In this document: positions 1,912-54,850 of the stretch, one piece after another
How the letters are laid out: every line of letters starts with the position of its first letter
How positions within the stretch are numbered: the stretch's first letter is position 1
Notes under the pieces: model-generated
Databases searched by the model: none
Seen by the model: the letters and a program-made list of their open reading frames with translations, nothing else
Told to the model about the DNA's origin: nothing
Source: an uncultured Scytonema sp.
GTDB lineage: Bacteria > Cyanobacteriota > Cyanobacteriia > Cyanobacteriales > Nostocaceae
Direction: 5' to 3'
Assembly: GCA_937873135.1 (NCBI GenBank)
Contig: CALMVQ010000037.1
Location: forward strand, 2,487 to 66,486
Length of the DNA: 64,000 bases
Made by a program: the position numbers and the translations under genes

Positions 1912-1927
1912 TGGCATGGTTTTTGCA
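1912..1927 (+). promoter_or_regulatory. Candidate sigma-54 (-24/-12) promoter TGGCATGGTTTTTGCA upstream of the MFS gene
   Basis: GG-N10-GC spacing is exact and the -12 element is TTGCA. It is intergenic, on the same strand as the ATG at 1965 and about 38 bp upstream of it. It matches the 8768 promoter at 15 of its first 17 positions. Confidence 0.6.
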
Positions 1928-1964: not shown

Positions 1965-3206
1965 ATGCCAGAAAAGCGAAACCCAAGTGAAAAGAGTTTG
2001 CACGCACTAGATTACTTGAACCTGTTTTTAGCAGACGTGCGGGATGGTGTAGGACCATATCTGAATATCTACCTCAAAGGCTCGCAACATTGGAATCCTC
2101 AGCAAATCGGGATAGCCACAGCCGCCTCCTCAATTGCTACAGTGATTGCCCAAACACCTGCTGGTGCTTTGATTGACAGATTGAGCCAGAAACGGTTGTT
2201 GATTGTACTGGCTGCTGCTATAGTCACCTGTGGTTGCTTTTTTATAGCATTGTTTCCAAATTTGCAAGTGGTCATCGGCGCTCAGGTTTTGATTGGCATT
2301 GGTGCAGCGGTTTTTCCTCCTGCCATTGCGGCGATTACCTTGGGGTTGGTGGGGAATGACAAATTAGATCGGCGAGTCGGTCGCAATGAGACTTTCAATC
2401 ATTCAGGCAATTTACTAGCTGCTACTTTGGCGGGTCTTGCTGGTCAATTTATTGCGCCCAAATCCATCTTTTTTCTGGTTGGGTTAATGGCTGTCGCCAG
2501 TGCTTTTGCAGTTGCCAGAATTCGTGAGAAGGAGATTGACCACGATTTAGCGCGTGGTGATGCAGAAGAAAGCTCTTTGGAGGAAACAGAACCTCAAGAT
2601 AAGCAAGGAGGTATATTAAAGCTATTGAGTGACCGCCGTATACTCTTCTTCGCTACAGCAGTGGTTCTATTTCACTTTGCTAATGCGGCAATGTTACCTT
2701 TGGTTGGTCAAAGACTGGCTATAGATGGTAAAGGAACAGGATTAGATGGCACTGTTTATCTGTCTGCTTGCATTATTGTCGCTCAGTTAGTTATGATACC
2801 CACGGCAAACTTTGCTGGTCGCTTAGCAGAAGGTGGGCGAAAAGGCATCTTTTTAGTGGGCTTTGGTGTGTTGCCCATTCGGGGTGTACTTTACACACTT
2901 TCGCACAATCCCTTTTTTCTGGTTTCCGTACAAATCCTAGATGGAATTGCCGGCGGTATCTTCGGTGTACTTTCGATACTGATGGTTGCTGATTTAACTA
3001 AGGGAAGTGGTCGCTTTAATCTCACCCAAGGTATGCTTGCCACCTCGATTGGTATTGGTGCAGGTTTAAGTAATTTACTGGCTGGATTTGTGGTACAAAA
3101 AGCCGGATACAATGTTGGTTTTCTGATGCTGGCGGCGATCGCTGCTGTAGCTTTAGCCGTTTTCTGGTTTCTCGTACCCGAAACTAAACAACGGATAAAA
3201 AGCTGA
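1965..3206 (+). CDS. MFS transporter
   Basis: 413 aa with about 12 predicted hydrophobic helices, a central charged loop, and an MFS-like GALIDRLSQKR motif after TM2. Confidence 0.85.
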   Translation: MPEKRNPSEKSLHALDYLNLFLADVRDGVGPYLNIYLKGSQHWNPQQIGIATAASSIATVIAQTPAGALIDRLSQKRLLIVLAAAIVTCGCFFIALFPNLQVVIGAQVLIGIGAAVFPPAIAAITLGLVGNDKLDRRVGRNETFNHSGNLLAATLAGLAGQFIAPKSIFFLVGLMAVASAFAVARIREKEIDHDLARGDAEESSLEETEPQDKQGGILKLLSDRRILFFATAVVLFHFANAAMLPLVGQRLAIDGKGTGLDGTVYLSACIIVAQLVMIPTANFAGRLAEGGRKGIFLVGFGVLPIRGVLYTLSHNPFFLVSVQILDGIAGGIFGVLSILMVADLTKGSGRFNLTQGMLATSIGIGAGLSNLLAGFVVQKAGYNVGFLMLAAIAAVALAVFWFLVPETKQRIKS

Positions 3207-3613: not shown

Positions 3614-4192
3614 TCAAAAAATAGGCAAATCTAAAACAAATTCTGGTAATACATTTTCTCCCGATAAATTTGCGGGTAATTGAACAATTTCAAAGGTTTG
3701 ATTGGGACGATAGATTTCTACTTGTTGTGCTTGGGGATTAATTAACCAACCTAACCGCAAACCACTGTTGAGGTATTCCTGCATTTTTTCTTGAAGTTGG
3801 GTCAGAGAGTCGGTGCGAGAACGCAATTCTATGACAAAATCAGGACATAATGGGGGAAACTTTTCTTGTTCTTCTGGTGTTAATGATTGCCAGCGTTCAT
3901 TAGTAACCCAAGCAACATCGGGAGAACGGTTTCCCCCATTCGGTAAACGAAATATGGTAGAAGAACTAAAGACTCTTCCCAGTTGAGTTTGACGGTTCCA
4001 CAACCAAAGTGAGCCGTTTAAATCAGCTTCTCGATTTCCACTGACTCCACCGACAGGAGGCATAATTATTAATTCTCCTTTAGTCGTTCGTTCCAATTGC
4101 CAATTTTGATTGTCTTGGCAGAGTTGGTAAAACTGCTCGTCGCTTAAGTCTACATTTTTTAAATTTAAAATTACCGTAGCTGAAGTAATCAT
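3614..4192 (-). CDS. Uma2 (DUF820) family endonuclease
   Basis: 192 aa with the GELIIMPP, SPDVAWV and PDFVIELRS motifs typical of the cyanobacterial Uma2 family. Confidence 0.85.
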   Translation of the reverse strand: MITSATVILNLKNVDLSDEQFYQLCQDNQNWQLERTTKGELIIMPPVGGVSGNREADLNGSLWLWNRQTQLGRVFSSSTIFRLPNGGNRSPDVAWVTNERWQSLTPEEQEKFPPLCPDFVIELRSRTDSLTQLQEKMQEYLNSGLRLGWLINPQAQQVEIYRPNQTFEIVQLPANLSGENVLPEFVLDLPIF

Positions 4193-4542: not shown

Positions 4543-5928
4543 TTATTGCCCATAAGTTTTTGAATCATCCAAACGCCTTCGTTTATGGGATGATTCAATC
4601 GCTGCAATTTTACGATATTTTGTCACTGTTCTGCGAGTTATTGGCAAATCAAACCTTACTCTTAAAAGTTGGGCTAGCTGTTCATCACTATAGGGATTGG
4701 TAAGTGATTCTTCTTCAATTAACTGTACGAGCATTTGTTGGATTTGTGGAGGAGTACGTCCGCCTACTAATGCTGGAACACATAGCAAATGCAACGGAAA
4801 AATTTGACTGTACGGGTTACTAATTAATATATACCGTCCCCGGACAATTCGGCTGATTGTGGAGTTACTGAGTCCTACCGATTGAGCGACTAATTGTTGT
4901 GGTGTAGGTACTAAATCTAAGCGATCGCGACTCTGCAAGAAAGCTTGCTGGCGTTCTACTAAAAATTGACCGACTTTGAGGAGATTTTCCTGCCATAGAT
5001 GTAATGCTGTAAGTAAGCTTTTTGCTTTTTTGTACAACACTTCTAGCTGTTGGGCTTCTCGCGTTCGCAGTTGAGATTTCTGCAAAAGCTCAACTGCTTC
5101 GGAATTTAGACAAAAGCGTTGCTCGACTTCAGAAGTTAAAGAAATTTGCCAACCACAAGCTGTTAATTTTGCTTTTAAATCGGGAGTTACAATAGGTGCA
5201 TTGTCATGACCAAAGTTTCTGGCAGGCCGAGGTTCTAATTCCTGAATTTCACGAATGGCGTCGTTTATTTTTTTGATATCTATATTCTGATAAGCTTGAT
5301 TTTGGAGCAACTTTTGTAGTAATATCTCACGATTAGAGCTTGCTTCTATAGAAGCACCAGTACAATTTGCTAATTCTTCTAAATACCCGTGAACTAATAG
5401 AAAAGCTAGACTTTGAGGCTTTTCTTTAAGTTGTAGTAACAGACACTCTTGTCCTGAACGAGCAGCAATTCCTGGGGGATCTAAACTTTGAAGAACAGGG
5501 ACAACTGCCTCTAATTCCCTTGCACTCCAGATACTACTACCATTTGCCCAAACGGTCGGAGTTTCTTCCAAGTATCCAGAGCTTGAGATCCATTGAGTTA
5601 AATAGATTAAAGCTTCACGTTGTCTTGATGGAATTGATAAGGCAGAGATTTGTCCAAATAGATGTTCGCTGAGACTTACGTACTGCGCGGGTAGAGTATA
5701 CCAATCTGGTAGAACATCCTCTAACAATGTTTCGCTTTTTTTCGCTAAAGTCGCATCCTCTATTAAAAATGGATTGTGTTTAGCCTCTTCCCGGACATAA
5801 TCTACTACTCGCTTCTGATCACATGGCAACAAGCGAACCAATTGCTGTAGCGTTGGATAAAGAACTGTTTGCGTTTCTAATTGTGTTTCTGTTGCAGGTG
5901 CGGCATTTAAAAAATTCATAAATTCCAT
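4543..5928 (-). CDS. rpoN: RNA polymerase sigma-54 factor (RpoN)
   Basis: 461 aa. Region I-like LQQLVRLL...EAKHNPFLIED is present. The C-terminal HTH is GLSNSTISRIVRGRY, and the RpoN box is ITRRTVTKYRKIA. An internal ATG at 5919 overlaps the upstream gene's stop as ATGA and may be the true start. Confidence 0.85.
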   Translation of the reverse strand: MEFMNFLNAAPATETQLETQTVLYPTLQQLVRLLPCDQKRVVDYVREEAKHNPFLIEDATLAKKSETLLEDVLPDWYTLPAQYVSLSEHLFGQISALSIPSRQREALIYLTQWISSSGYLEETPTVWANGSSIWSARELEAVVPVLQSLDPPGIAARSGQECLLLQLKEKPQSLAFLLVHGYLEELANCTGASIEASSNREILLQKLLQNQAYQNIDIKKINDAIREIQELEPRPARNFGHDNAPIVTPDLKAKLTACGWQISLTSEVEQRFCLNSEAVELLQKSQLRTREAQQLEVLYKKAKSLLTALHLWQENLLKVGQFLVERQQAFLQSRDRLDLVPTPQQLVAQSVGLSNSTISRIVRGRYILISNPYSQIFPLHLLCVPALVGGRTPPQIQQMLVQLIEEESLTNPYSDEQLAQLLRVRFDLPITRRTVTKYRKIAAIESSHKRRRLDDSKTYGQ

Positions 5929-7235
5929 TGCTGCTTTTTTTGCTCAAAGCTTTTGGCACAAAGTCCTAAAGCTTTGTGAGGTTCTTGGGGATAAAGAGCT
6001 AAAGCTCGGCGGATTAAGTTAAGCTCTAATTGAGCAACAGCTTGTTCCAAGTTTAAATCTATGTGGTTTTCTTGACTAAATATCAGATGCTCTGGTAATA
6101 TTGTACGCCCACCGGAAAGAATAGCTGCTCGCTCTAAAGTATTTTGCAACTCTCGTACATTTCCTGGCCAAGTATGACCTGTAAGTTTTTCCAAAGCCGC
6201 TCTTGTCATTGCGATTTTCACGCCATTACGCAAAGCAATGTAGCTTAAAAAATGTTGAGTCAGTTGCTCTAAATCTTCTAGGCGATCGCGTAAAGGCGGC
6301 AGTTCCATTCGTACCACATTCAAGCGATAATAAAGGTCTTCCCGAAATTGATTTAGGTTGACAAGCTGCTCTAAATTCCGATTGGTCGCTGCTATGATGC
6401 GGATATCTACGGTTTTGGTTTGGTTACTACCCAACCGCTCAAATGATTTATCCTGTAACACCCGCAATAGTTTCCCCTGAATCACTAAGCTCAACTCTCC
6501 AACTTCATCAAGAAATATCGTTCCACCATTCGCCTGCTCAAATCGACCGATTCGTAAATGATTGGCTCCGGTGAAGGCACCTTTTTCGTGCCCAAATAAC
6601 TCTGCCTCTAACAGATGTTCTGGAAGTGCCGCACAGTTGACTTTTACCAAAGGTCCACGACTACGAGGACTGGTAGTATGGAGAGTGGAAGCGACTAACT
6701 CTTTGCCAGTGCCTGATTCTCCGGTAATTAAGACTGTGGTATTGACTTGAGCAACTCTACCAATGAGTTTAAAGACGGATGCCATCGCAGGCGATCGCCC
6801 CAATAGTTCTTCTGGGTGTCCTAAAGCTTCGGGATTTGCTTCACCAAACTGATAGGCTAAAGCATGGGAGTGAGCTAAAGCCTTTTGAGTTAGATTGACC
6901 AAATCATCCAGAGAGAAAGGTTTAGTTAAGTAATCATAGGCTCCCAACTGTATCGCTTCAATCGCTGTACGACTTGTCCCATATGCCGTCATCACAATCA
7001 CAGGCAGTTCAAACAGTGTTTTTCCCAAAGCTTTAAGAACCTCACTCCCCTGAGTTTTGGGCATTTTCAGATCCAGAAACACTAAGTCAGGAGGAGATGC
7101 CGCATCTTGTTGAATGATCTTCAGTCCCTGCTGTCCATCTCCTGCTTCTACGACTGTGTGCCCAACATCATTAAGAATCTGCGCCATTGCCTGACGCAAA
7201 GCTTTTTCATCATCAATAATGAGAATTTTAGACAC
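5916..7235 (-). CDS. Sigma-54-dependent response regulator (NtrC/ZraR-type bacterial enhancer-binding protein)
   Basis: Receiver domain has IIDDE, FLDLKMP and TKPF. The AAA+ domain has Walker A GESGTGKE, the GAFTGA loop and IFLDEVGEL. A Fis-like C-terminal HTH is present. The GTG start overlaps the kinase stop by 8 nt. Confidence 0.9.
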   Translation of the reverse strand: MSKILIIDDEKALRQAMAQILNDVGHTVVEAGDGQQGLKIIQQDAASPPDLVFLDLKMPKTQGSEVLKALGKTLFELPVIVMTAYGTSRTAIEAIQLGAYDYLTKPFSLDDLVNLTQKALAHSHALAYQFGEANPEALGHPEELLGRSPAMASVFKLIGRVAQVNTTVLITGESGTGKELVASTLHTTSPRSRGPLVKVNCAALPEHLLEAELFGHEKGAFTGANHLRIGRFEQANGGTIFLDEVGELSLVIQGKLLRVLQDKSFERLGSNQTKTVDIRIIAATNRNLEQLVNLNQFREDLYYRLNVVRMELPPLRDRLEDLEQLTQHFLSYIALRNGVKIAMTRAALEKLTGHTWPGNVRELQNTLERAAILSGGRTILPEHLIFSQENHIDLNLEQAVAQLELNLIRRALALYPQEPHKALGLCAKSFEQKKQQWNL

Positions 7236-8706
7236 GAGTGTCTCCTGACTCCTGAGTCCTAGTTGGTAAATAAACGCTAAAAATAGTACAACCAGGCTCA
7301 GAGGTTAAACTAATATATCCTCCATGTCGCGTGACGATCTCGTGGCTAATTGCTAAACCCAACCCCGTTCCTTCCGGCTTTGTGGAATAGAAAGGCTCAA
7401 AAATTCGTTCGCGCTCTTCTGGTGACAAACCCGATCCTGAGTCTTTTACCCAAGTTACCAAATCGTCTTGCTGTTCTACACCCACCTCAACTCTCTCTCC
7501 TGCTGGACTAGCTTGGATAGCATTCAAAATTAAATTCACCATCACCTGTCCTAACTCCCGACGGCGCAGTAATATCTGGGGTAAAGCCTTAGCAGGCTCG
7601 TGATAGATGAGTGCAACTCCCTGTTCTTCTGCTGATAGACGCAGCAAGGAAACAGATTCCAAAGCGATCGCCTCTAGGGAAGTCCTCACCATTTCCTCCT
7701 CTGACTGATTTTGGTCAAAGTACATCAGTCGTTGCACCAAATGCTCTAAACGGTCTACTTGTTCTATTAAGCTAGCAGTCGGTAGAGTGGTTACCCCAAG
7801 ATTGTGGAGTTGTCGTTCTGTATACTGCAAATTCAGACGCATACTGGCTAGTGGATTGCGGACTTCATGGGCTACCCCCGCTACCAGATGTCCTAAAGAT
7901 GCCAAACGCTCGACTCGGTGTAGGCGCTGTTCTAACTCTTGGCGACGACATTGCATAGTATTAATCGCAGATCCCAACAATCCCATTTCTGCTGGTAGGG
8001 GTGGAATCAGCGAAGTTTTAGAATATTCCATCACCTTGATACTCTCATGGAGTCGCTGTACTCCCCGGTGAAGTTGTAAGGCAATATAAAAAGTCCAAGC
8101 TCCCACCACTAAATTTCCGAAAACTACCAGAAGACTCAGGACTTTTTGATCACCATCTTCGAGGCGAGGCATACGTTTCATTGTCCATACTGCTCCCCAT
8201 AAAGGTAGCGGATCTGCACGCAGTACCAAGATATCAAGACCTGATTTCCGGATTAATTCTTGGGGTAAGCCTTGGCTTGTCGCTCTCCGAGCTAATTGTA
8301 AAATTGTACTTCGCTCAACCGCAGGAATATCTTTTTTCGGGATAGGTCCTCCGTGGGTAGGAAACGCATAGCCTAATAGTCGATCTTGTTGCAGCAGGTA
8401 AAATCCCCCTTCTACTCTGGGAAAAACCGTGAGCGCTTCATTTGAGAGTTCCTCCAACTGCGTGTCTGGCTGCTTGCTTGACTTTGGTGTTTGCCCAAGC
8501 GGTAATTCCCAAAACAGCTTAATCAGTCTAGTATTGGCAAAAGTCAGTGTTCTTTGGTTTCTGGCTACCACTACACCCTCTAAACTTTGAAATAGCTGTA
8601 CTACCAGCAACAACGCAGCTCCACTTAAACCTAAAAACAGGACGCTCAGGATTGTGAGTTGCTGTCGGAGTGTCCAACTTTGGGGTAATACAAAGGGTTT
8701 CATCAC
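7228..8706 (-). CDS. Membrane sensor histidine kinase (two TM helices, periplasmic loop, HisKA plus HATPase)
   Basis: H-box GVAHEVRNPLAS, N-box LILNAIQA, G-boxes DSGSGL and GTGLGL. Hydrophobic helices lie near residues 17-40 and 190-212. Confidence 0.9.
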   Translation of the reverse strand: MMKPFVLPQSWTLRQQLTILSVLFLGLSGAALLLVVQLFQSLEGVVVARNQRTLTFANTRLIKLFWELPLGQTPKSSKQPDTQLEELSNEALTVFPRVEGGFYLLQQDRLLGYAFPTHGGPIPKKDIPAVERSTILQLARRATSQGLPQELIRKSGLDILVLRADPLPLWGAVWTMKRMPRLEDGDQKVLSLLVVFGNLVVGAWTFYIALQLHRGVQRLHESIKVMEYSKTSLIPPLPAEMGLLGSAINTMQCRRQELEQRLHRVERLASLGHLVAGVAHEVRNPLASMRLNLQYTERQLHNLGVTTLPTASLIEQVDRLEHLVQRLMYFDQNQSEEEMVRTSLEAIALESVSLLRLSAEEQGVALIYHEPAKALPQILLRRRELGQVMVNLILNAIQASPAGERVEVGVEQQDDLVTWVKDSGSGLSPEERERIFEPFYSTKPEGTGLGLAISHEIVTRHGGYISLTSEPGCTIFSVYLPTRTQESGDTRV

Positions 8707-8734
8707 ATATAGCTATCGAAGCAGATTCATAATG

Positions 8735-8750
8735 TGGCACTAACCTGCCA
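8735..8750. promoter_or_regulatory. Palindrome TGGCA-N6-TGCCA between the kinase start and the sigma-54 promoter
   Basis: A perfect 5+5 inverted repeat. GG-N9-GC spacing on both strands makes it a poor sigma-54 promoter, so it could instead be an operator. Confidence 0.3.
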
Positions 8751-8767
8751 AAGTCGTCTTGTATCTA

Positions 8768-8783
8768 TGGCACGATTTTTGCA
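8768..8783 (+). promoter_or_regulatory. Sigma-54 (-24/-12) promoter TGGCACGATTTTTGCA
   Basis: Exact match to the TGGCACG-N4-TTGCA consensus with GG-N10-GC spacing. It lies 62 bp from the divergent kinase start and 48-63 bp upstream of the in-frame GTG starts of the downstream gene. Confidence 0.7.
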
Positions 8784-8845
8784 CTATTACATTTCGGGAG
8801 CTGTATTCCATACAATTGCATTCAGGATTCGTGAGGTCGTCTTTT

Positions 8846-9820
8846 GTGAAAAATAACTCAGAAGTTCGGATTCCCAAAGAAATTGCTACAAATGTTTTTG
8901 CTCTGGCTGCTCACCTGTATGAGCAAGAAAAACAGGACTATTCCTTAGAGGAACTTATACAGGCAGGAGCCGAAGTACATATTCCAAGAGAGTTGATTCA
9001 AAAAGCTATACAGCAAATCCAAGCACAGCAAAGCTCAGTTCGCTCGCGACAGCAAAAGTTAAAATTAATCTTGATCAGTGGGAGTACAGGAGCCGCGATC
9101 GCGCTTATGAGTGTATTTGCTTACAATAGTGTTGCTAGTAACTTCATCGGAACTCAGCGATCGCCAGTAAACAATCTCCTGGCTACTGATTTGCGGAATA
9201 CTAACACTCAAGATATTCCTAACCCACTCCAACCGCCACCCCCAGTCTTCCCCAAAGCAGATGAAACGACTATGACAGGAGAGGTGCAACAATATATTCT
9301 TAACCCTGAAGGAAAGGTGGATGGACTCTTACTCAAAAATGGGTTACAAGTAAAATTTCCGCCTCATATGGGGGACAGCTTAGTAGCTTTGGTGACTCAG
9401 GGAACTAAAATCACTATTTCGGGAAAACCAGGCTTGTCTACCCGCTTTGGTGAAGAGGTAAAAGCTAGAAGCATTACTAATTCTCAAACTGGACAGACTT
9501 TAGTCGCTCAACCTCCCACCATACCGCCCCAACCGCCCGGCTTGAGCAACTACAGTACTTTATCTGTAGAGGGAACCGCCCAGCATTGGTTAGTGGGACA
9601 TAGAGGTGAGATAAATGGCGTCATTGTCTCCAATGGTGCAATTGTGAAGTTCCCACCACATGTAGGCAATCAGCTAGTCAATACGGCGAATGTAGGAGAC
9701 AAAATCCAAGCTCAAGGTTTTGGAACTCGCAACCCGGAAGGTCAGATTATACAAGCTACAGCGCTTTCTATCAATGGGCAAATCGTGTCTCTAGAACCAA
9801 AAGGCGTTGTCGATCCCTAG
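8846..9820 (+). CDS. Membrane-anchored protein of unknown function with two tandem ~80-aa periplasmic repeats
   Basis: The ORF 8759..9820 overlaps the promoter, so the start is more likely the GTG at 8846 (GAGG 9 nt upstream) or at 8831. One TM helix (LILISGSTGAAIALMSVF), Pro-rich linkers, and an internal duplication sharing a NG..VKFPPH.G..LV motif. Confidence 0.7.
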   Translation: MKNNSEVRIPKEIATNVFALAAHLYEQEKQDYSLEELIQAGAEVHIPRELIQKAIQQIQAQQSSVRSRQQKLKLILISGSTGAAIALMSVFAYNSVASNFIGTQRSPVNNLLATDLRNTNTQDIPNPLQPPPPVFPKADETTMTGEVQQYILNPEGKVDGLLLKNGLQVKFPPHMGDSLVALVTQGTKITISGKPGLSTRFGEEVKARSITNSQTGQTLVAQPPTIPPQPPGLSNYSTLSVEGTAQHWLVGHRGEINGVIVSNGAIVKFPPHVGNQLVNTANVGDKIQAQGFGTRNPEGQIIQATALSINGQIVSLEPKGVVDP

Positions 9821-9833
9821 CAGGCACTCTTAT

Positions 9834-9849
9834 TGGCATGAAAATTGCG
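9834..9849 (+). promoter_or_regulatory. Candidate sigma-54 (-24/-12) promoter TGGCATGAAAATTGCG
   Basis: GG-N10-GC spacing is exact and the -12 element is TTGC. It is intergenic and 213 bp upstream of the permease start. The -12 element is contributed by a HIP1-containing repeat arm. Confidence 0.45.
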
Positions 9850-9924
9850 ATCGCGTCTCTACGTTAAAATCCCTTCGGTAGTTTTCTTTCCTTGCGATGC
9901 CCGAAATCAAAGAGACGCGATCGC
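9847..9924. repeat. Inverted repeat GCGATCGCGTCTCT ... AGAGACGCGATCGC (14-bp arms, 50-nt spacer)
   Basis: Perfect 14-bp arms, each containing HIP1. The left arm overlaps the -12 element of the candidate promoter at 9834. Confidence 0.7.
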
Positions 9925-10061
9925 CCTTGTCTCTACACTATGCCCGAACCAGCAAAATACGGATTTAAACCGCCAAGACGCCAAGGACGCAGAGAAAGAA
10001 GGTAATAAAGATAGGTAATTTTACACTCCTGATGGGAGTCATCTAAAATCTGGGCATCCAA

Positions 10062-11246
10062 ATGATTGTTTTTAGATACATCGTCATTGTAGTGACTTAT
10101 GTCGGTTTGGGTTTAGGGTATATACCTGGTTTACGGATGAATCGAGCCAGTATTGCTCTAGTTGGTTCATCTTTGCTGATGGCATTGGGCGTTTTAGATC
10201 TTAAAGAAGCATGGGGAGCGATTGATTATAAAACGCTGATTTTCTTATTTAGCATGATGGCAATCAGCGCTAACCTGGCTTACTCTGGTTTTTTTCAACT
10301 AGTGCTGGATATGATCATGCGCTATTTCCGCAGTCCCCTTGGTTTGCTGATTGTTTTAACTTGCGGTAGTGCGATTCTCTCAGCTTTTTTTCTGAATGAT
10401 ACCATTGCCCTAATTCTTACTCCCTTGACTTTAGGCTTAGCTCAAACTTTAAACCTTAATCCTATTCCTTACTTACTTGCATTGGCGGGAGCAACTAATC
10501 TTGGTTCAGTCGCGACATTGAGTGGTAATCCTCAAAATATCTTAATTGGTTCTTTTTCTGGGATCAGCTATCTTGACTTTGCTAAAGCTTTAACTCCTAT
10601 TGCATTAATAAGTTTGTTGATTCAGATAGGTTTACTGTGGTTACTCTACCCTGATATCCGCTCTACTAAATCTTGCTTGAGTGGAGAACCTTTGCGATAT
10701 CGTGTATTCAAACCCCTACTGATTAAGAGTCTACTGATCACCGGCGGATTGTTGGTTGCATTCTTAATTGGGATACCCCCAGCCCAAGCAACACTAGTCG
10801 CAGCGGGTTTAATGTTTATCACCAGGCGAATCAAACCACAGCGAATTTTAAATAAGGTGGACTGGGATTTACTAGTGATGTTTTCTGGACTGTTTATTGT
10901 GACTGCTGGAGTGGAAAAATTAGGAGTATTGGATTTATTTGGCGGTTTTGTGCATACTCCCTTGAGCATATTAGGAGTTACTGCTCTTATGTCCAATTTA
11001 GTTTCTAATGTCCCGGCTGTATTGCTACTGAAACATTTAATTCCTCATCCAGATACAAAAACTTGGTTACTCTTAGCGGCTGGCTCTACCTTGGCTGGTA
11101 ATCTAACTTTGTTAGGTTCAGTTGCTAATTTAATTGTTGCGGAAGCTGTCGCCAAACAGGGACATCATTTGTCATTTTGGGAACATTTGCGTTTTGGCCT
11201 ACCGCTGACTGTCCTGACTCTCATTATCGCCTATTGGTGGATTTAA
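10062..11246 (+). CDS. ArsB/NhaD-superfamily (citrate-transporter-like) anion permease
   Basis: 394 aa and highly hydrophobic (about 10-11 helices). The SGNPQNILIG motif is typical of this permease superfamily. Confidence 0.8.
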   Translation: MIVFRYIVIVVTYVGLGLGYIPGLRMNRASIALVGSSLLMALGVLDLKEAWGAIDYKTLIFLFSMMAISANLAYSGFFQLVLDMIMRYFRSPLGLLIVLTCGSAILSAFFLNDTIALILTPLTLGLAQTLNLNPIPYLLALAGATNLGSVATLSGNPQNILIGSFSGISYLDFAKALTPIALISLLIQIGLLWLLYPDIRSTKSCLSGEPLRYRVFKPLLIKSLLITGGLLVAFLIGIPPAQATLVAAGLMFITRRIKPQRILNKVDWDLLVMFSGLFIVTAGVEKLGVLDLFGGFVHTPLSILGVTALMSNLVSNVPAVLLLKHLIPHPDTKTWLLLAAGSTLAGNLTLLGSVANLIVAEAVAKQGHHLSFWEHLRFGLPLTVLTLIIAYWWI

Positions 11247-11437: not shown

Positions 11438-14245
11438 CTACAACCCTCTCATAATGATTCCATCCTTAGCACGCATATAAAGCACGGGTGTGGCAAAGTC
11501 GCGTTGCTCCAATCCGACTTCTATAGAAATGGCATTGCGGGTTGTTTGGATAGCTGCGTCAACTGGCCAACCAAGTGCTAGAGTACGGTAGAACTCCGAA
11601 GCGAACAGTTTGGCAGTAGTATCGTAGATGGAGTATTGCATAGAGACTACTGCGGGAATTAAGCGACATACTAAGTTAGGCGCTATACCAGCAAGGGCTT
11701 GCGAATTGGACACTGTTGCACCTTGACAGGAATTTAGTACTACTAATCCCAAATTGTTGTCACCCAAGAAGAAGTTGGCAAAGCGCTCATCATCCAATCT
11801 TTCTTCTTTGCCGTTTTCGTCTACGAGAGAAATATAACCTTTATTGTTCTCAAAGATACCATGACCGATAAAATGGAAGACATTGTAAGGCTTTTCGCGT
11901 AACTTTTGGTTAATGTTGCGGATAGTGGGTTCAGGCAGTACATCTAATTGAATTGTACCTGCTTCTAGATGTTTTGCTAGTGCAGAGCGAAGCAGTTTTT
12001 CTTCTCCATCAACATCCAATCGTGGTAAATCAGTTGGACTAGAGATGACTAACAGAATGAGGAGTGGCGAGCTACGAGGTTTAAGTTCGCGCTTTTTTAG
12101 GGGAATGTCAATATAACGCGAGAGTACGGTTCGGGTGTCATTTGCTAGAAAAGTCTCAGTTCGTTCGTCGTAGAGAAATTCCCACGGTAGGGTAGCTAAT
12201 TCGGGAGATTCAAACACCAAGCGCAGGCGCACATTATAATTATTTTCTTCTGCACCTGCCATTGTAGCCCGTAATTGACCGTAAATATCCATGGGGAAAA
12301 GCGCTTTGTAGAGTTTGCCGCCTAATCCTTTGAGTAAATCTTCATCTGTTTGTCCCTGCTCTATCAGTTGTAATGTCAGTTTAATTTCATTGATATCCAA
12401 CCGTAATTCGCCCTGTTCTTCCCCTTGTTCAGAGTCAACGCGAATTTTTTCGTCTTTCGTCACCAATACTTGAAAATCCTGGTAATTCATGGTATAGTTG
12501 TCTCTTGCAAAAGATAAAGATTCGTCTCTATCAAGCTTCAGTTCCCGTTGTAACGGTGTAGATTGGCGGTTGACTTCCCGATTTTCTTCAAGCGGTAGCG
12601 GACTAACATCGTCAATTAGCCTGCGCACATCGACTATTTCATAGCTAATTTCGCATTCAACTTGATATCGACCAGCATTTAAGCGCTTCCGCAATGAGTC
12701 CAGAGAATAAGTATGCGGAGTCTGACTTCCCTCACAGGTAGTGCAGTTGCAAGGAACAAGTGTGTTATACTGCAAACGTTCAAAAGACTGATGAATTTTT
12801 TCTAGTTCGTGAGTGACGACTGCTAGCAAGTCTTTCTTACGGTTTCCGGCAACACGGATTTTGATTTCCCTCTGATTATAGTCTTCAATGATTTCGGCAC
12901 GAGATTGATCTTTGTTGAGGACAACACCACTTCTCCAAACGAGGTTTTGCTGTTCAATCCAAGGGTGTGTCTCAACAATGAAGCGGGTGAGAATACCTTT
13001 GGGCATGAATTCGTATTTGTAGCGTAAAATGAGATTATTCGTATCGTCCCAAGTGTAGTCGGGTTGGTTGATATTAAGTAGTTGTGGTGCAATATAGTGA
13101 TTAGGACGATTGGGAATTGGGTAGCAAAGTTTGAAGCGCATCATAAGTTGGAGTAACTCATCTCGCATATCAGTATATTCGCCGTCAAGCCAAATTTCAG
13201 CAAGATTATTCTGAGTAAAACACCCCAGATTTTCCCTAACGGTTTTGTTGTCTAAAACTTTGTAAACGGCAGTTGTACCCCATTCTGGTTTGAGAATGAT
13301 ATAGTGTTTAAGTGTAGGATCGTCTTGAAAGTGCAGGCAAACGCCTAAATCGTGCAGATAACGACTCAACCGCAACATATCTTCGCGATCGCTTAAACTA
13401 TTCTGTAGGCAAAGTTGGTAGTATTCATCCTGACTGATGTAATTGCGGGAATCATTTTCTAAGGCATAACGGACTTTTACCCAGAGTTTTGGCAAAAGTT
13501 GACCAACGTGGGGAAGCCGACTAATATATGTTTGAATATTTTCTTTAATTTCGTCTAAACCGCGATTAGTAGCTAAGTTAGTTGGGAGAATTTCTTTGAG
13601 GTGAGCGAATTCTCCACGCAAGGAGCGATCATTAACCTCGCACTGACGGTCTTGTTTTTCATTTTTAATAATTAGAACCGGGCTATTGTCGTTTAAGAGT
13701 TCGGCAACCTTGAGCCACCAGTAAAAGTCGGTGTTTTGTGTGCGAGTATCAGCGACTAAAGCGTACAGAGAACGCTTAGTAAGGAAAAACTGGTGGGTTT
13801 GGTGGTAAATTTCTTGCCCGCCAAAATCCCAAATGTTGACGCGAAAGTCTTTGCCATTAGGTTGTGTGAAATGCCACTGAATCACATCAATGCCTGAAGT
13901 TGATTTTTCATCCGATTGAAGTTTGTAGCTTTCATTTTTAATTTTCTTGGCTAAAGAAGTTTTACCAGATCCCCCTTCACCAATAATTAAAAATTTGGCT
14001 TCATAAAAAGGTTCAGTTTCGGATGGATCTTGCACCCGAAAATAGAAATCAAGAATTTCCTTCACATCACCTGGATCTTCATTTAGGTTTTTTGAACCCA
14101 AAATCTCAGGTGGAATCGGCACTGGGTTCCCATGCAAATCCAGTTTTTTCAGCTTTGGTATTTGCCTAATTTCTGATGGCAGACTGCTCAGTTGATTGCT
14201 CTTAAGCTTTGGGAAAACTAGTGCCGCAAGGCGGAAGTCACTCAT
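11438..14245 (-). CDS. ROCO-type GTPase (residual LRR, Roc, COR) fused to a C-terminal CHAT (caspase-like) protease domain
   Basis: 935 aa. LRR remnant is NQLSSLPSEIRQIPKLKKLDLHGN. Roc P-loop is GEGGSGKTSLAK, with WDFGGQE as the switch II motif. The CHAT His/Cys dyad is FIGHG (H795) and LNSCQG (C840). Confidence 0.85.
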   Translation of the reverse strand: MSDFRLAALVFPKLKSNQLSSLPSEIRQIPKLKKLDLHGNPVPIPPEILGSKNLNEDPGDVKEILDFYFRVQDPSETEPFYEAKFLIIGEGGSGKTSLAKKIKNESYKLQSDEKSTSGIDVIQWHFTQPNGKDFRVNIWDFGGQEIYHQTHQFFLTKRSLYALVADTRTQNTDFYWWLKVAELLNDNSPVLIIKNEKQDRQCEVNDRSLRGEFAHLKEILPTNLATNRGLDEIKENIQTYISRLPHVGQLLPKLWVKVRYALENDSRNYISQDEYYQLCLQNSLSDREDMLRLSRYLHDLGVCLHFQDDPTLKHYIILKPEWGTTAVYKVLDNKTVRENLGCFTQNNLAEIWLDGEYTDMRDELLQLMMRFKLCYPIPNRPNHYIAPQLLNINQPDYTWDDTNNLILRYKYEFMPKGILTRFIVETHPWIEQQNLVWRSGVVLNKDQSRAEIIEDYNQREIKIRVAGNRKKDLLAVVTHELEKIHQSFERLQYNTLVPCNCTTCEGSQTPHTYSLDSLRKRLNAGRYQVECEISYEIVDVRRLIDDVSPLPLEENREVNRQSTPLQRELKLDRDESLSFARDNYTMNYQDFQVLVTKDEKIRVDSEQGEEQGELRLDINEIKLTLQLIEQGQTDEDLLKGLGGKLYKALFPMDIYGQLRATMAGAEENNYNVRLRLVFESPELATLPWEFLYDERTETFLANDTRTVLSRYIDIPLKKRELKPRSSPLLILLVISSPTDLPRLDVDGEEKLLRSALAKHLEAGTIQLDVLPEPTIRNINQKLREKPYNVFHFIGHGIFENNKGYISLVDENGKEERLDDERFANFFLGDNNLGLVVLNSCQGATVSNSQALAGIAPNLVCRLIPAVVSMQYSIYDTTAKLFASEFYRTLALGWPVDAAIQTTRNAISIEVGLEQRDFATPVLYMRAKDGIIMRGL

Positions 14246-26737: not shown

Positions 26738-27443
26738 AACCAGGATTTTCTATACTGCTTTAATGCAGAAATCTCCATTTATTTTTCATCTGTGGAATAA
26801 ATTTAAAATCTAAAATCCTTAAGCCTAAGAGTACAGAGCGTGGAGTCAATCCGTACATTCGGTTAGAGGTTGACTTTCTTTGCACAGCTGGGAGTTCCAG
26901 AGGAAATATTTGCCTTGCATCCTGATTTTGTAAAGACTAAAAATAATTTGTATTGCTCACCTTGACTTTTATTAGCAAAACATTACAAAATCTTGTTTTT
27001 TGATACTATTGCTATGGTAGTATGTTAACTAATTACGGTTGGTCACTCAAATAAACGTATTTTCCTGGTATAATCAACGGATAGGAGATATCTATAGTAA
27101 AGACCTTAGAGGCACTGAGATGAAGGAGTAAATTTTTGCTAGTTTTTAGGCAACCAATGGTTGGACGACTTAATGCTGGCACTAGAAATGCACTTATCCA
27201 ACCCATGAGTGTGCTGCTGGCGTAGCTGTTCAATGGTAGAAAAAGTTGCTTTCATAGATATAAAGCAAGTTTTTGTTTTTCTTGTTTCAGTCTCTAATTT
27301 TTATAGAGAGTGAGATAAGTCATGATTAATAAAATTGTACACTCATTTCAACCAACTTGTCTAGTCTAAGCAGGTCTGGTTTAAAATCGTCTTCTTTAAA
27401 TCTTAATTCTTGGAGCTTAGTCTTAGTAGAGTCGTCAAAATTA

Positions 27444-28451
27444 ATGAAACCACTATTTTTTAGTCGAGCGAACAGTCATTTTTTACAAACATTACTAATG
27501 TTTGTGGCTTTGGGTATGACTTCTTGTAGCGGTGCCGAGGAACAGAAGCGGCAGATAAGTATTGATGGTGGAACCGTTGGTTATCCACTTCATCAAGCAG
27601 TTGCTGAAGAATATAAAAAGGTGAAACAAGATGCCCAAATTAGCGTTGCTTTTAGTGGTACTGGCGGTGGCATGAGTAAGTTCTGTTCCGGGCAAATTGA
27701 TATTGCTGGTGCTTCACGCGCTATAAAAAAAGAGGAAATTGCTAAATGTAAAAAGCAGGGAATTAATTTTGTAGAGTTACCTGTCGCTCTCGATGGAATT
27801 GCTGTCATTACTAATAAGAAAAATGATTTTGTGAAATGCTTATCGATTCCAGAACTTAATAAAATGTGGAGTCCCAAATCAACTAATAAAATAAAAAACT
27901 GGAATCAAATTAATGCGAAGTTCCCCAACCAAAAGTTGACGCTTTATGCGCCTTCTTCAGATACTGGAACATTTGACTACTTCACACAAGCTATTAATAA
28001 AAAATCCAAAGCTGGTCGGACAGATTACACTTCAACTCAAAATCAAAACGTTCTTGTTCAAGGAATTGCTGGTGATGAGAACGCAATAGGTTACGTGGGT
28101 ATTTCTTACTACTTAGCAAAGAAAAATCAGCTACAGCTCGTTGCGGTGCAAACTCCGAAAGGAAATTGTGAAACACCAGAGCCGTCATCCAAAGTTGCTA
28201 CCAACACCTACACACCTTTGTCTCGTCCTCTATTCATATATGTTAGCCAAAAGTCCCTGGACAGTAAGCCAGTAGTCAAGGATTTTGTTAATTTCTATTT
28301 AGACAATTCTAAGAAGTGGGTTCAACAGTCTGGCTACGTTGAACTTACTGATGAGACTTATGGCAAGGTAAAACAAAGGTTTACTTCTGATACAACAGGT
28401 TCCAAATTCCTAAAAGCAAAACCTGGAGATCCGATTGCGAAGTATCTTTAA
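27444..28451 (+). CDS. pstS: Phosphate ABC transporter substrate-binding protein
   Basis: SGTGGGMSKF and IAGASR motifs. The likely start is the ATG at 27444, giving a lipoprotein-like signal peptide (LGMTSC). The longest ORF starts with TTG at 27357. Confidence 0.85.
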   Translation: MKPLFFSRANSHFLQTLLMFVALGMTSCSGAEEQKRQISIDGGTVGYPLHQAVAEEYKKVKQDAQISVAFSGTGGGMSKFCSGQIDIAGASRAIKKEEIAKCKKQGINFVELPVALDGIAVITNKKNDFVKCLSIPELNKMWSPKSTNKIKNWNQINAKFPNQKLTLYAPSSDTGTFDYFTQAINKKSKAGRTDYTSTQNQNVLVQGIAGDENAIGYVGISYYLAKKNQLQLVAVQTPKGNCETPEPSSKVATNTYTPLSRPLFIYVSQKSLDSKPVVKDFVNFYLDNSKKWVQQSGYVELTDETYGKVKQRFTSDTTGSKFLKAKPGDPIAKYL

Positions 28452-53185: not shown

Positions 53186-54850
53186 TTAGTTTCTACTCTT
53201 AAAAGAGTTTAACCAATGTCTGACCTGCTCGGCAGCAATATCGCGAGAGCCCAGACCAAAAGATAGAGCAACAGCGATCGCCACGGCTCCTAGTAAAAGT
53301 CCAAAGGCTAAATTCACAATATCCGTGGCAACACCGATCTGTTGCAATGCCATTGCTGATACTAGACAAATAATCGCAATCCGCGCTACTTGACCCAAGA
53401 TCCTTGCTTGGCGATCGCCAGAACTGGTAATGATATTAAAAGCTAGATTTGCTAAAAACAACCCAACAGCAAACACCACCAAACCTGCCAAAATTCGCCC
53501 CAAGATAACGACTATACCCGTGACGAGGATTGTTAGTGCCTGAATATTCAAGATATTGACTGCGGCGACAGTTGCAAACAGCATAATGCCGACTAAGACA
53601 ATAATGCCGACCACTTCCGATGGGGTACGGGTTGAGATTCGACTTTGTGGTGTTGTTGGTTCTGGAATCACAACTCTTCTCGTCGGTGATGGCAGACCTA
53701 AGATCGAGAAAATGTTGTCAAAACCTATACTTGTGAGGATATTGGTAACGAGTTCTGCAACGAATCGTCCAAAGAAATAGGCAATAATCAAAATAGCTGC
53801 TGCCGTAAAGATTGCAGGCAGTGTATTGAGAATCTGTTGCAGCATGGAAATTGCTGGCACAGAAATTGCCTGAATTTGGAGAGTGTTCAACGCGGCGATC
53901 GCAACAGGGATCAAAATCAAGACATAGACAAGTGTGCCGATAATCGCTGATAGAGATTGCATCCCTGTTGAACTACTGCGGGTGAACCCAAACCGACTCC
54001 CCAAATTGTCAATGCCAGTTGTCATTAACAAGTTCGTGACAATCCGCCGCACGATATTCGCCACAAACCAGCCAATTGCCGCAATGAGTATTGCACCGAG
54101 AATATTTGGCAGAATTGACAGAATCTGTGTAATCAGAGTTTGTACTGGTTGTAGTGCCTGCCTGAGCCCTAGTGCATCTAGTATCGGGGCAAGAAACAGT
54201 AAAAAGATAAACCAATATAGGGCATTGCCAATTGTCTCACTTAGTGAGACACGACTACTGCTTAGGGAGGTTGTGTCTTCTGGTGGATTTACGCGCTCGT
54301 CTATTCGTAATGCGTTCAATCCACGTACAGTTATTAGTTTGACTACTGTGGCTACTAACCAAGCTGCCGCAAAAAGGATTGCCGCACCCACAAGCTTGGG
54401 TAAGAAATCACCAACTTGATTGAGAAAACTATTGAGTGGCTGAGAAGCAACTCTGAGATTTAGAGTGTCTAAAACGGCAACTATCGTGATCAGCAATATA
54501 GCCCAGAAGACTAAGCTGGAGATAATTTTCTCCACCTGGGGAAGTTCTCTACCCGTGATTCCAGTAGCAATCCGGTTATCGATATTTGTACGATTGAGCA
54601 GGGAACGAGTCAGTGCAGCTGCGATCGCCGCAATTACCCAACCAACTAACAAAATCAGTACGGCTCCCAACAATGTGGGCAGAAAATTAATCACCTGCTG
54701 CAAGCTTCCTTGCGCGTAATCGACGATACCACCAGGTTGAGTTGTTGGTAACGTTGGCGATTGTGCTAATAATCGCTGTCCTCCGGTTGACCTACCAACT
54801 TCCATCACCTGGATTATTCCTTGCCAAGTTGTGTTCATGGTTTTCTGCAA
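53186..54850 (-). CDS. Multi-pass membrane protein built from repeated conserved-TM-helix units (mechanosensitive-channel-associated type)
   Basis: 554 aa with a repeated (L/I)P.(L/I)(L/V)GA..I....W..A pattern about five times. Confidence 0.6.
   Translation of the reverse strand: MQKTMNTTWQGIIQVMEVGRSTGGQRLLAQSPTLPTTQPGGIVDYAQGSLQQVINFLPTLLGAVLILLVGWVIAAIAAALTRSLLNRTNIDNRIATGITGRELPQVEKIISSLVFWAILLITIVAVLDTLNLRVASQPLNSFLNQVGDFLPKLVGAAILFAAAWLVATVVKLITVRGLNALRIDERVNPPEDTTSLSSSRVSLSETIGNALYWFIFLLFLAPILDALGLRQALQPVQTLITQILSILPNILGAILIAAIGWFVANIVRRIVTNLLMTTGIDNLGSRFGFTRSSSTGMQSLSAIIGTLVYVLILIPVAIAALNTLQIQAISVPAISMLQQILNTLPAIFTAAAILIIAYFFGRFVAELVTNILTSIGFDNIFSILGLPSPTRRVVIPEPTTPQSRISTRTPSEVVGIIVLVGIMLFATVAAVNILNIQALTILVTGIVVILGRILAGLVVFAVGLFLANLAFNIITSSGDRQARILGQVARIAIICLVSAMALQQIGVATDIVNLAFGLLLGAVAIAVALSFGLGSRDIAAEQVRHWLNSFKSRN

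Follow-up and report, generated by a model that had tools for sequence, protein, structure and literature searches.

What would an exact -24/-12 promoter, the type of site served by sigma-54, be doing in the DNA of a cyanobacterium? Sigma-54 was absent from 29 of the 29 cyanobacteria surveyed in 2011 (PMC3162934), and cyanobacterial genomes were described in 2024 as containing only sigma-70 genes (PMC11119718). The site that raises this question lies at 8768-8783 on the plus strand of a 64-kb stretch of DNA from an uncultured Scytonema sp. (64,000 nucleotides, hereafter the window), where an original prediction made from the sequence alone had placed a sigma-54-type promoter, divergent from an operon encoding a sensor kinase and a sigma-54 activator. 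Our analysis showed that this operon consists of three genes rather than two, the one that had been missed being rpoN, which encodes sigma-54 itself. Judging from sequence comparisons, the 8768 promoter is very probably among the outputs of a compact regulatory module with a sigma factor of its own.

The promoter at 8768 and the operon beside it

The site and the genes on its two sides are as follows.

8768-8783, plus strand: predicted sigma-54 (-24/-12) promoter of the OB-fold gene, TGGCACGATTTTTGCA, with a predicted transcription start site near 8794
8759-8767, plus strand: conserved 9-nt extension abutting the -24 element, TTGTATCTA here and CTGTATCTT in other genera
7228-8706, minus strand: sensor histidine kinase, HisKA plus HATPase_c, H-box HEVRNPL, probable start ATG 8703
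5916-7235, minus strand: sigma-54 activator (bacterial enhancer-binding protein) made of a receiver (REC) and an AAA+ domain, Response_reg 4-115, Sigma54_activat 145-310 (241 bits), lid 316-386
4543-5928, minus strand: rpoN (sigma-54), 461 residues, overlapping the activator gene by 13 nt
8846-9820, plus strand: gene for a single-pass membrane protein with OB-folds, 324 residues, start GTG 8846, Shine-Dalgarno GAGG at 8833-8836

The sequence of the flagged site corresponds exactly to TGGCACG-N4-TTGCW, with its GG and GC in the canonical register, and it was the only exact match in the window when 0.02 would be expected according to 100 dinucleotide-preserving shuffles, so that the chance estimate of about 0.1 that came with the original prediction was conservative. 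Its predicted position 62 bp from the kinase GTG was also correct, the divergent region between the minus-strand kinase start (GTG 8706 or ATG 8703) and the downstream plus-strand gene being 139 bp long. The promoter is identical in Rhizonema and Iningainema and, when the DNA upstream of the OB-fold gene was aligned from seven genomes, the invariant columns clustered on TGGCA.GA..TTTGCAC with essentially unconserved flanks. The site is intergenic, correctly oriented and kept at orthologous positions while its flanks diverge. In the same alignment, the 9-nt extension has invariant T, A and T columns at 8762, 8763 and 8766; it is specific to the promoters of OB-fold genes and is not present at those of the major facilitator superfamily (MFS) genes described below.

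The proteins encoded by the operon have kept their functional motifs. Two transmembrane helices of the kinase flank a periplasmic sensor of about 150 residues. The GAFTGA, Walker A (GESGTGKE) and Walker B (DEVGE) motifs of the activator are intact, and so is its receiver aspartate, read by eye in LVFLDLKMP. In RpoN, the Pfam domains Sigma54_AID, CBD and DBD each score over their gathering thresholds, and residues 85-453 align to the solved K. pneumoniae and E. coli sigma-54 structures with an E-value of about 6e-26; compared with these structures, the RpoN box reads RRTVTKYR versus RRTVAKYR, the helix-turn-helix (HTH) STISRIV versus STISRVT and region I PTLQQLVRLL versus PQLQQAIRLL. Neither a second activator nor a second rpoN was found in the window. 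All six module genes have intact reading frames and are under purifying selection, with ratios of nonsynonymous to synonymous substitution rates (dN/dS) of 0.07-0.33 against Rhizonema and Iningainema (0.23-0.33 for rpoN). Sites, genes, intact motifs, co-occurrence, conservation and purifying selection were all computed directly. Together, these comparisons argue strongly for a functional promoter at 8768-8783, dependent on sigma-54 and used by the kinase, activator and sigma factor encoded next to it.

The DNA of the window is cyanobacterial and the cassette bears the signature of its host: the HIP1 octamer GCGATCGC occurs 39 times in the window versus 0.35 expected, including inside the rpoN, activator, kinase and target genes, and the GC content of the cassette is that of its surroundings. 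The closest relatives of this rpoN are found in Rhizonema (91-94% protein identity) and Iningainema (84%), and a database-wide search delineated a clade of about 90 clusters at 45-94% identity, which are cyanobacterial only, wherever the organism is named. Its genera include Nostoc, Scytonema (S. hofmannii PCC 7110), Brasilonema, Stigonema, Chroogloeocystis, Calothrix, Thermoleptolyngbya and Leptolyngbya, together with Chroococcidiopsidaceae. Beyond this clade there is a sharp drop in identity, to about 30% for Nitrospinota, Nitrospirota and other groups. A look-up of the exact RpoN sequence of the window gave no record, so that its host could be placed no more closely than as Rhizonema-like. 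Several members are carried on contigs of 7-11 Mb. A plasmid origin was considered and rejected, this rpoN being on no cyanobacterial plasmid and all plasmid matches staying below 31% identity.

The operon as a whole recurs in 10 of the 11 related loci that we compared (given handles L001 to L012 where they need to be told apart): in Rhizonema (L002, L003), Iningainema (L004), Nostoc sp. DSM 114159, Nostoc sp. TCL240-02, Scytonema PCC 7110, Chroogloeocystis siderophila, Thermoleptolyngbya, Microcoleus sp. N3A4 and a Chroococcidiopsidaceae metagenome-assembled genome (MAG). Both Nostoc carriers are complete chromosomes. The exception is Rhizonema NSF051 (L001), whose rpoN has no neighbouring kinase and activator genes; a pentapeptide-repeat/CHAT gene stands right 5' of rpoN, in their place (L001 54-2456).

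As for previous reports, a 2025 survey names rpoN in Gloeocapsa PCC 7428 and Leptolyngbya O-77 in one sentence, and a term search in its supplements gave a presence table only (one of 65 genomes) and nothing on promoters or a regulon (PMC12316311). Since NCBI annotation already calls these genes sigma-54, the existence of a cyanobacterial rpoN gene is not new. In the literature that we searched, which leaves out most subscription journals, we found neither the promoters nor the architecture of the module nor its regulon described.

Target genes, further sites and autoregulation

The gene into which the 8768 promoter points does encode a membrane-anchored periplasmic protein, as had been predicted, with one transmembrane anchor and two OB-folds. 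Its longest open reading frame starts at TTG 8759 and overlaps the promoter, and the real start had been expected at GTG 8831 or GTG 8846. It is the latter: GTG 8846 encodes the residue with which 27 of the 28 aligned homologues start, it has the Shine-Dalgarno sequence 9 nt on its 5' side and it would give a leader of about 52 nt. Since L002 carries a 1-nt insertion between the promoter and the position of GTG 8831, that stretch is noncoding.

The protein is composed of a conserved cytoplasmic N-terminal helical domain of about 60 residues, basic residues, a transmembrane helix, a variable proline-rich linker and two periplasmic OB-fold repeats. Considering that the basic residues precede the transmembrane helix, the positive-inside rule predicts that its N-terminus is in and its C-terminus out. 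An arrangement in which a single transmembrane helix joins a cytoplasmic domain to a periplasmic one is that of proteins that relay signals or give feedback. In an AlphaFold model the repeats form two beta-barrels, with predicted local distance difference test (pLDDT) scores above 90 over most of residues 140-320 or so, and Foldseek matched tandem-OB single-strand-binding proteins (E-value about 5e-5, TM-score 0.17-0.25), which indicates a fold class only. Pfam and NCBIfam searches gave no family for the protein. The 55 homologues that were found are all labelled "hypothetical" and all come from cyanobacteria, namely the genera of the rpoN clade and, in addition, Microcoleus. Residues 1-60 (8846-9030) are highly conserved, with invariant A21, E36, Q39, A40 and A54, and belong to no known family.

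Relaxing the search pattern to TGGCAYG-N4-TTGC gave three matches in the window, at 1912, 8768 and 9834, versus 0.08 expected, and three matches were reached in 0 of 100 shuffles. Each of them is intergenic and faces a gene; the first and the last had been overlooked in the original prediction.

1912-1927, plus strand: predicted second sigma-54 promoter, TGGCATGGTTTTTGCA, 38 nt 5' of the ATG of the MFS gene
1965-3206, plus strand: MFS transporter gene, 413 residues, Pfam MFS_1 153.5 bits, dN/dS 0.11-0.23
9834-9849, plus strand: probable third sigma-54 promoter, TGGCATGAAAATTGCG, 14 nt past the stop of the OB-fold gene, 213 nt 5' of the permease ATG
10062-11246, plus strand: CitMHS/ArsB-like permease gene (ion-transporter superfamily), 394 residues, Pfam CitMHS 227.6 bits

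The 1912 site is identical in L001, L002 and L003, and the MFS genes of Nostoc (L006, L012) and Scytonema (L007) have a counterpart of it on their 5' side. When the MFS promoters of four genomes were aligned, the invariant columns fell again on the -24 and -12 elements and not on the flanks. Since the DNA 5' of this promoter is unrelated between close relatives until about 5 bp before TGGCA and then becomes nearly identical up to the ATG, the conserved unit starts at the -24 element.

The permease gene is syntenic with the cassette in L002, L003, L006, L010 and L012, and its NCBIfam DASS/ArsB matches are under the cut-offs. In other genera it has no site of its own and lies downstream of another gene that bears a -24/-12 site. 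Considering the sigma-70-like TTTACA-18-TAAAAT found at 10020-10049, shortly 5' of the permease ATG, this gene may have an additional, sigma-54-independent promoter. The leader contains a HIP1-based inverted repeat at 9847-9924 (GCGATCGCGTCTCT ... AGAGACGCGATCGC). A riboswitch or attenuator in this 213-nt leader was considered and rejected (folding z = +0.88 versus shuffles, with a 95-nt indel relative to Rhizonema), and an Rfam search of the whole window detected no known RNA family.

We then extended the search to the 12 sequences formed by the window and the 11 loci (about 241 kb), using the pattern TGGCAY-N5-TTGC and open reading frames (ORFs) as a proxy for what is intergenic. It gave 30 matches when about one would be expected by chance, according to base-composition arithmetic and not to shuffles. 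By the ORF proxy, 28 of the 30 are intergenic, as well as cassette-adjacent and gene-facing; the two others are L009 12202, which overlaps a probably spurious ORF only, and window 53855, which is inside a real gene. This last site (53855-53870, TGGCACAGAAATTGCC) has one mismatch and is within the long minus-strand ORF 53186-54850; we treated it as a chance match. The same probably applies to 27177-27192 (TGGCACTAGAAATGCA), whose single mismatch gives ATGCA as the -12 element, as about 2.6 one-mismatch matches to the flagged pattern are expected per window by chance; it is located about 180 bp 5' of a gene for a PstS-like phosphate-binding protein (27357-28451).

Sites of the same kind precede other genes in the relatives. 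In Nostoc sp. TCL240-02 (L012 484-3078), an extra one is found before the gene for a 212-residue OB-fold paralogue (30% identity over 142 residues), which is followed by a frameshifted gene (1353-2364) and then an OFeT_1-family permease gene. In Chroogloeocystis and Thermoleptolyngbya (L008 2946-5153; L009 12233-14616), a -24/-12 site precedes a homologous pair of genes for secreted PKGxxPPP-repeat proteins, followed by a gene for an S-adenosylmethionine (SAM) methyltransferase of 420-440 residues and, in Chroogloeocystis, by a TonB-dependent receptor gene; these repeat-protein and methyltransferase genes appear to be a different output set of the same module. In Thermoleptolyngbya, this kind of promoter also precedes an OmpR-type regulator gene. 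The theme of the predicted targets across genomes is the cell envelope and transport, in line with a general proposal according to which the bacterial exterior is under sigma-54 control (PMC3162934). A reading in terms of arsenic or metals, suggested by the ArsB-like permease, the methyltransferases and OFeT_1, was rejected, the methyltransferases matching the generic class I SAM-dependent type only, far below the ArsM cut-offs.

Is the module also able to activate its own expression? One more site in the divergent region bears on this question.

8736-8751, minus strand: probable relic of an autoregulatory -24/-12 site, TGGCAGGTTAGTGCCA, with a GG-GC spacing one base short, facing the kinase operon

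On the plus strand this site is a palindrome, TGGCA-N6-TGCCA (TGGCAC-TAAC-CTGCCA), 17 bp 5' of the 8768 promoter. An intact kinase-facing site occupies the equivalent position in Nostoc DSM 114159 (L006), Scytonema (L007), the Chroococcidiopsidaceae MAG (L011) and Nostoc TCL240-02 (L012). In Microcoleus, the operon sits downstream of the promoted genes on the same strand. Since an intact -24/-12 site faces the kinase-activator-rpoN operon in these relatives, their sigma-54 would be positively autoregulated. The 15-nt version is common to the window, Rhizonema and Iningainema, and its sequence varies (GTGTCA; TGGCTCTTGAGTGCA) while the target-facing promoter is invariant. Sigma-54 promoters do not tolerate changes in the spacing between their -24 and -12 elements, and 8736-8751 is therefore most simply explained as a relic. 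We consider that the kinase-facing site is probably dead in this lineage, with autoregulation apparently lost, and that a weak promoter of the sigma-70 type probably drives the operon. In Nostoc sp. DSM 114159 (L006 6800-7000), the divergent region measures 344 bp and is full of short heptamer-type repeats (GGGAATA/GGGAACA) that form inverted blocks between its two sigma-54 sites.

Two other genes adjoin the cassette. A gene for a putative Uma2-family endonuclease (3614-4192, minus strand) is directly 3' of rpoN and is kept in L002 and L003 as 192-residue ORFs, and a 935-residue Roc-COR-CHAT protein, with a Ras-like GTPase and a caspase-like CHAT domain, is encoded at 11438-14245 on the minus strand.

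Proposed mechanism and other explanations

Considering these results, how could the module work? The kinase (7228-8703) would sense an envelope or periplasmic signal and phosphorylate the receiver of the activator (5916-7235), whose ATPase, once activated, would use its GAFTGA loop to remodel closed complexes made of RNA polymerase and the sigma-54 of the module (4543-5928). Such complexes would be parked at the -24/-12 promoters 1912, 8768 and 9834, and the MFS transporter, the tandem-OB-fold protein and the CitMHS/ArsB-like permease would then be switched on as an envelope and transport response. Dependence on sigma-54 in vivo and control by phosphorylation are what we infer from the genes and sites described above, and the physiological role that we suggest follows the nature of the targets.

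How the activator may reach these promoters can be approached from its C-terminus. Matches to the NCBIfam NtrC, AtoC and ZraR models stop near residue 384, and those to the solved NtrC1, NtrC4, ZraR and FleQ structures end by residue 380-411. The C-terminal 50 residues or so gave no Pfam match at E<=10, HTH_8 included, and a profile of the tail built from six lineages, when run against all PDB chains, did not recover any DNA-binding domain of the Fis or NtrC type at E<=10, so that the idea of a vestigial Fis-type HTH finds no support in either search. Upstream of the -24 elements, the separate promoters of the window, L002, L007 and L012 have no 8-mer and at most one 7-mer in common, and the few words shared in L006 are repeat-like in appearance; back-to-back promoters stand 16-49 bp apart at several loci. 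Activators made of REC and AAA+ domains without a D domain, such as FlgR and CtcC, are a recognised class, group 5 (PMC7482065; PMC7175178). Since neither a DNA-binding domain nor an upstream motif common to the promoters was detected, we lean towards an activation that would be enhancer-independent, from solution, as in FlgR and CtcC.

Several observations weigh against the mechanism proposed here. RpoN scores under the NCBIfam rpoN equivalog cut-off (TIGR02395; 222.8 versus 277.35 bits), making it a divergent member of the family. The structural model of the kinase sensor, with a PDC/Cache-like topology, is of low confidence (pLDDT 64, from a shallow alignment of 10 sequences), and the sensor gave no PDB match at E<=0.001, so that its ligand is not inferable. 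The 9834 site is kept only in the close relatives L002 and L003 (dS about 0.1), and it is the weakest of the three. A scan for consensus sigma-70 promoters on both strands of 8700-8860 gave none for the kinase-activator-rpoN operon (a weak aCGACt-17-cATTAT seen by eye on the minus strand is not relied on) and, since no operon promoter was identified, purifying selection is the sole ground for assuming that sigma-54 is expressed in this lineage. Regarding enhancer independence, the test for shared k-mers was crude, as it considered exact words in 200 bp only, and 45 residues of the activator tail are conserved in six lineages, with 28 invariant positions among 59 columns. This tail could be an unrecognised DNA-binding element with TTGTATCTA next to the -24 element as its site.

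If that was the case, activation would be of the conventional, enhancer-dependent type, with the tail binding DNA near the promoters, for example at TTGTATCTA or downstream of the start. Beyond its conservation, the tail resembles by eye the helix pattern of a Fis-type HTH, and the promoters of OB-fold genes do carry the conserved 9-nt extension. Yet neither Pfam HTH_8 nor the PDB profile search detected such a domain, and the tail is missing in Iningainema, Scytonema and the Chroococcidiopsidaceae MAG and replaced in Nostoc TCL240-02, four of the ten lineages, all of which keep their promoters, the TGTATCTT extension included. MFS promoters have no extension at all, and the separate promoters lack common upstream words as described above. 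Enhancers do not normally abut the -24 element, and a site there would be unusual. We therefore regard enhancer-dependent activation as unlikely, even if it is the alternative that fares best.

Another possibility was that the locus is a cyanobacterial ZraPSR orthologue, that is a zinc or envelope-stress system whose divergently encoded periplasmic repressor-chaperone feeds back on the kinase, and the original prediction had indeed likened it to the zraP/zraSR arrangement of E. coli. The likeness is real for the layout, with a kinase and a sigma-54 activator divergent from a gene for a periplasm-exposed protein and the sigma-54 promoter on the target side; REC-AAA+ activator chemistry is common to both systems, matches to the ZraS and ZraR models do cover the catalytic parts and a feedback of the OB-fold protein on the kinase is conceivable. 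Membership of the ZraPSR family did not hold, however. The kinase and activator score 170.5 versus a cut-off of 479 for ZraS and 358.4 versus 760 for ZraR, AtoS, AtoC and NtrC scoring higher (NCBIfam); the target is a membrane-anchored tandem OB-fold protein and not a helical protein of the ZraP/CpxP type; the activator has no detectable HTH whereas ZraR has one; and, unlike ZraPSR, the operon found here in a cyanobacterial host includes rpoN and would control two additional transporter genes. The analogy is thus good for the layout only, and orthology is very improbable.

Could the module instead be a non-functional remnant, a horizontally acquired fossil that is incompatible with the cyanobacterial RNA polymerase and whose sites persist because the genomes compared are too close? 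Sigma-54 is reported to be missing from nearly all cyanobacteria (PMC3162934, PMC11119718, and one of 65 genomes in PMC12316311), our search gave no promoter for the rpoN operon of the window, the kinase-facing site has decayed and Rhizonema NSF051 carries rpoN but lacks the kinase and activator genes beside it. Against this stand intact reading frames throughout with dN/dS of 0.07-0.33, intact catalytic and recognition motifs, a clade that covers several cyanobacterial orders at 45-94% protein identity and sites that do not vary from genome to genome even though the OB-fold proteins are only 44-70% identical and the flanks are unconserved. A fossil is accordingly very hard to reconcile with these data. 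As for a chance match or the operator of an unrelated regulator, about 2.6 one-mismatch matches per window are indeed expected and 27177 and 53855 look like chance, but an exact match expected 0.02 times next to rpoN, 30 equivalent sites in 12 sequences that are nearly all cassette-adjacent, intergenic and gene-facing, and a conservation that tracks the -24/-12 pattern exactly make this explanation barely credible.

With the 8768 promoter read as an output of a sigma-54 module, the rpoN found here is no isolated oddity, as a dedicated kinase, an activator and conserved -24/-12 promoters accompany the gene, and a predicted regulon can consequently be read directly from the sequence. We also propose, as a tentative generalisation for which we would give slightly less than even chances, that several orders (Nostocales, Chroococcidiopsidales, Oscillatoriales and Leptolyngbya-like cyanobacteria) maintain a deeply divergent, cyanobacteria-specific sigma-54 as a minimal, portable and enhancer-free regulon that works with the cyanobacterial RNA polymerase, and in which one kinase, one activator lacking a DNA-binding domain and one sigma factor share an operon and serve a few promoters close by, those of envelope and transport genes. 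If true, this would overturn the notion that cyanobacteria have only sigma-70-type factors and give those who study or engineer cyanobacteria a native, orthogonal and tightly off/on transcription switch. The cyanobacterial RNA polymerase is unusual in having a split beta-prime subunit and a giant SI3 insertion, and a functional module would raise the question of how sigma-54 and its AAA+ activator work with it. It would also offer a compact and probably enhancer-free sigma-54 switch of possible use in synthetic biology. Three promoters, three regulator genes and three target genes can be tested in Scytonema hofmannii PCC 7110 and Nostoc sp. TCL240-02, which are culturable and fully sequenced.

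Comparison with known systems

Considering that the zraP/zraSR analogy does not extend beyond the layout, which characterised systems resemble this module most? Mechanistically, the nearest ones appear to be CtcB-CtcC-sigma-54 of Chlamydia and FlgS-FlgR-RpoN of Helicobacter, in which a two-component kinase likewise acts on a REC-AAA+ activator, one that is without a DNA-binding domain, as the activator described here may be, and where one or very few activators per sigma-54 serve a small regulon. In Chlamydia, the sigma-54 regulon comprises membrane and envelope proteins (PMC7482065; PMC7175178). The module described here differs from both in that sigma-54, activator and kinase are encoded in one operon flanked by its own target promoters, six of its lineages keep a 45-residue tail and the predicted targets are transporters and an OB-fold protein rather than genes for flagella or type III secretion; in our case, it is the sequence that suggests enhancer independence.

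For the control of rpoN itself, the closest parallel is the autoactivated nifU2-rpoN superoperon of Rhodobacter capsulatus, which also needs a weak constitutive promoter (PMC6925177, citing Cullen et al. 1994). As in that system, rpoN lies behind a sigma-54-type promoter in the Nostoc, Scytonema and Chroococcidiopsidaceae relatives. The R. capsulatus activator NifA is encoded elsewhere, unlike the activator of this module, and binds an enhancer, and the loop has apparently been lost in the lineage of the window, where the site is one base short and drifting.

Modules made of an extracytoplasmic function (ECF) sigma factor and its anti-sigma factor are portable, combine a dedicated sigma with signalling partners, are often autoregulated and act on few nearby target promoters. 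The module described here is comparable to them as a portable unit with a dedicated sigma, signal-transducing partners and a handful of nearby promoters, but its sigma factor belongs to another family and would rely on ATP-dependent open-complex formation instead of release from an anti-sigma factor. What distinguishes it is the combination of sigma factor, activator and kinase in one operon flanked by its own targets, together with a cyanobacteria-specific and deeply divergent sigma-54 lineage in a phylum described as being without sigma-54, and a natural series that leads from autoregulated modules to one in which autoregulation is lost.

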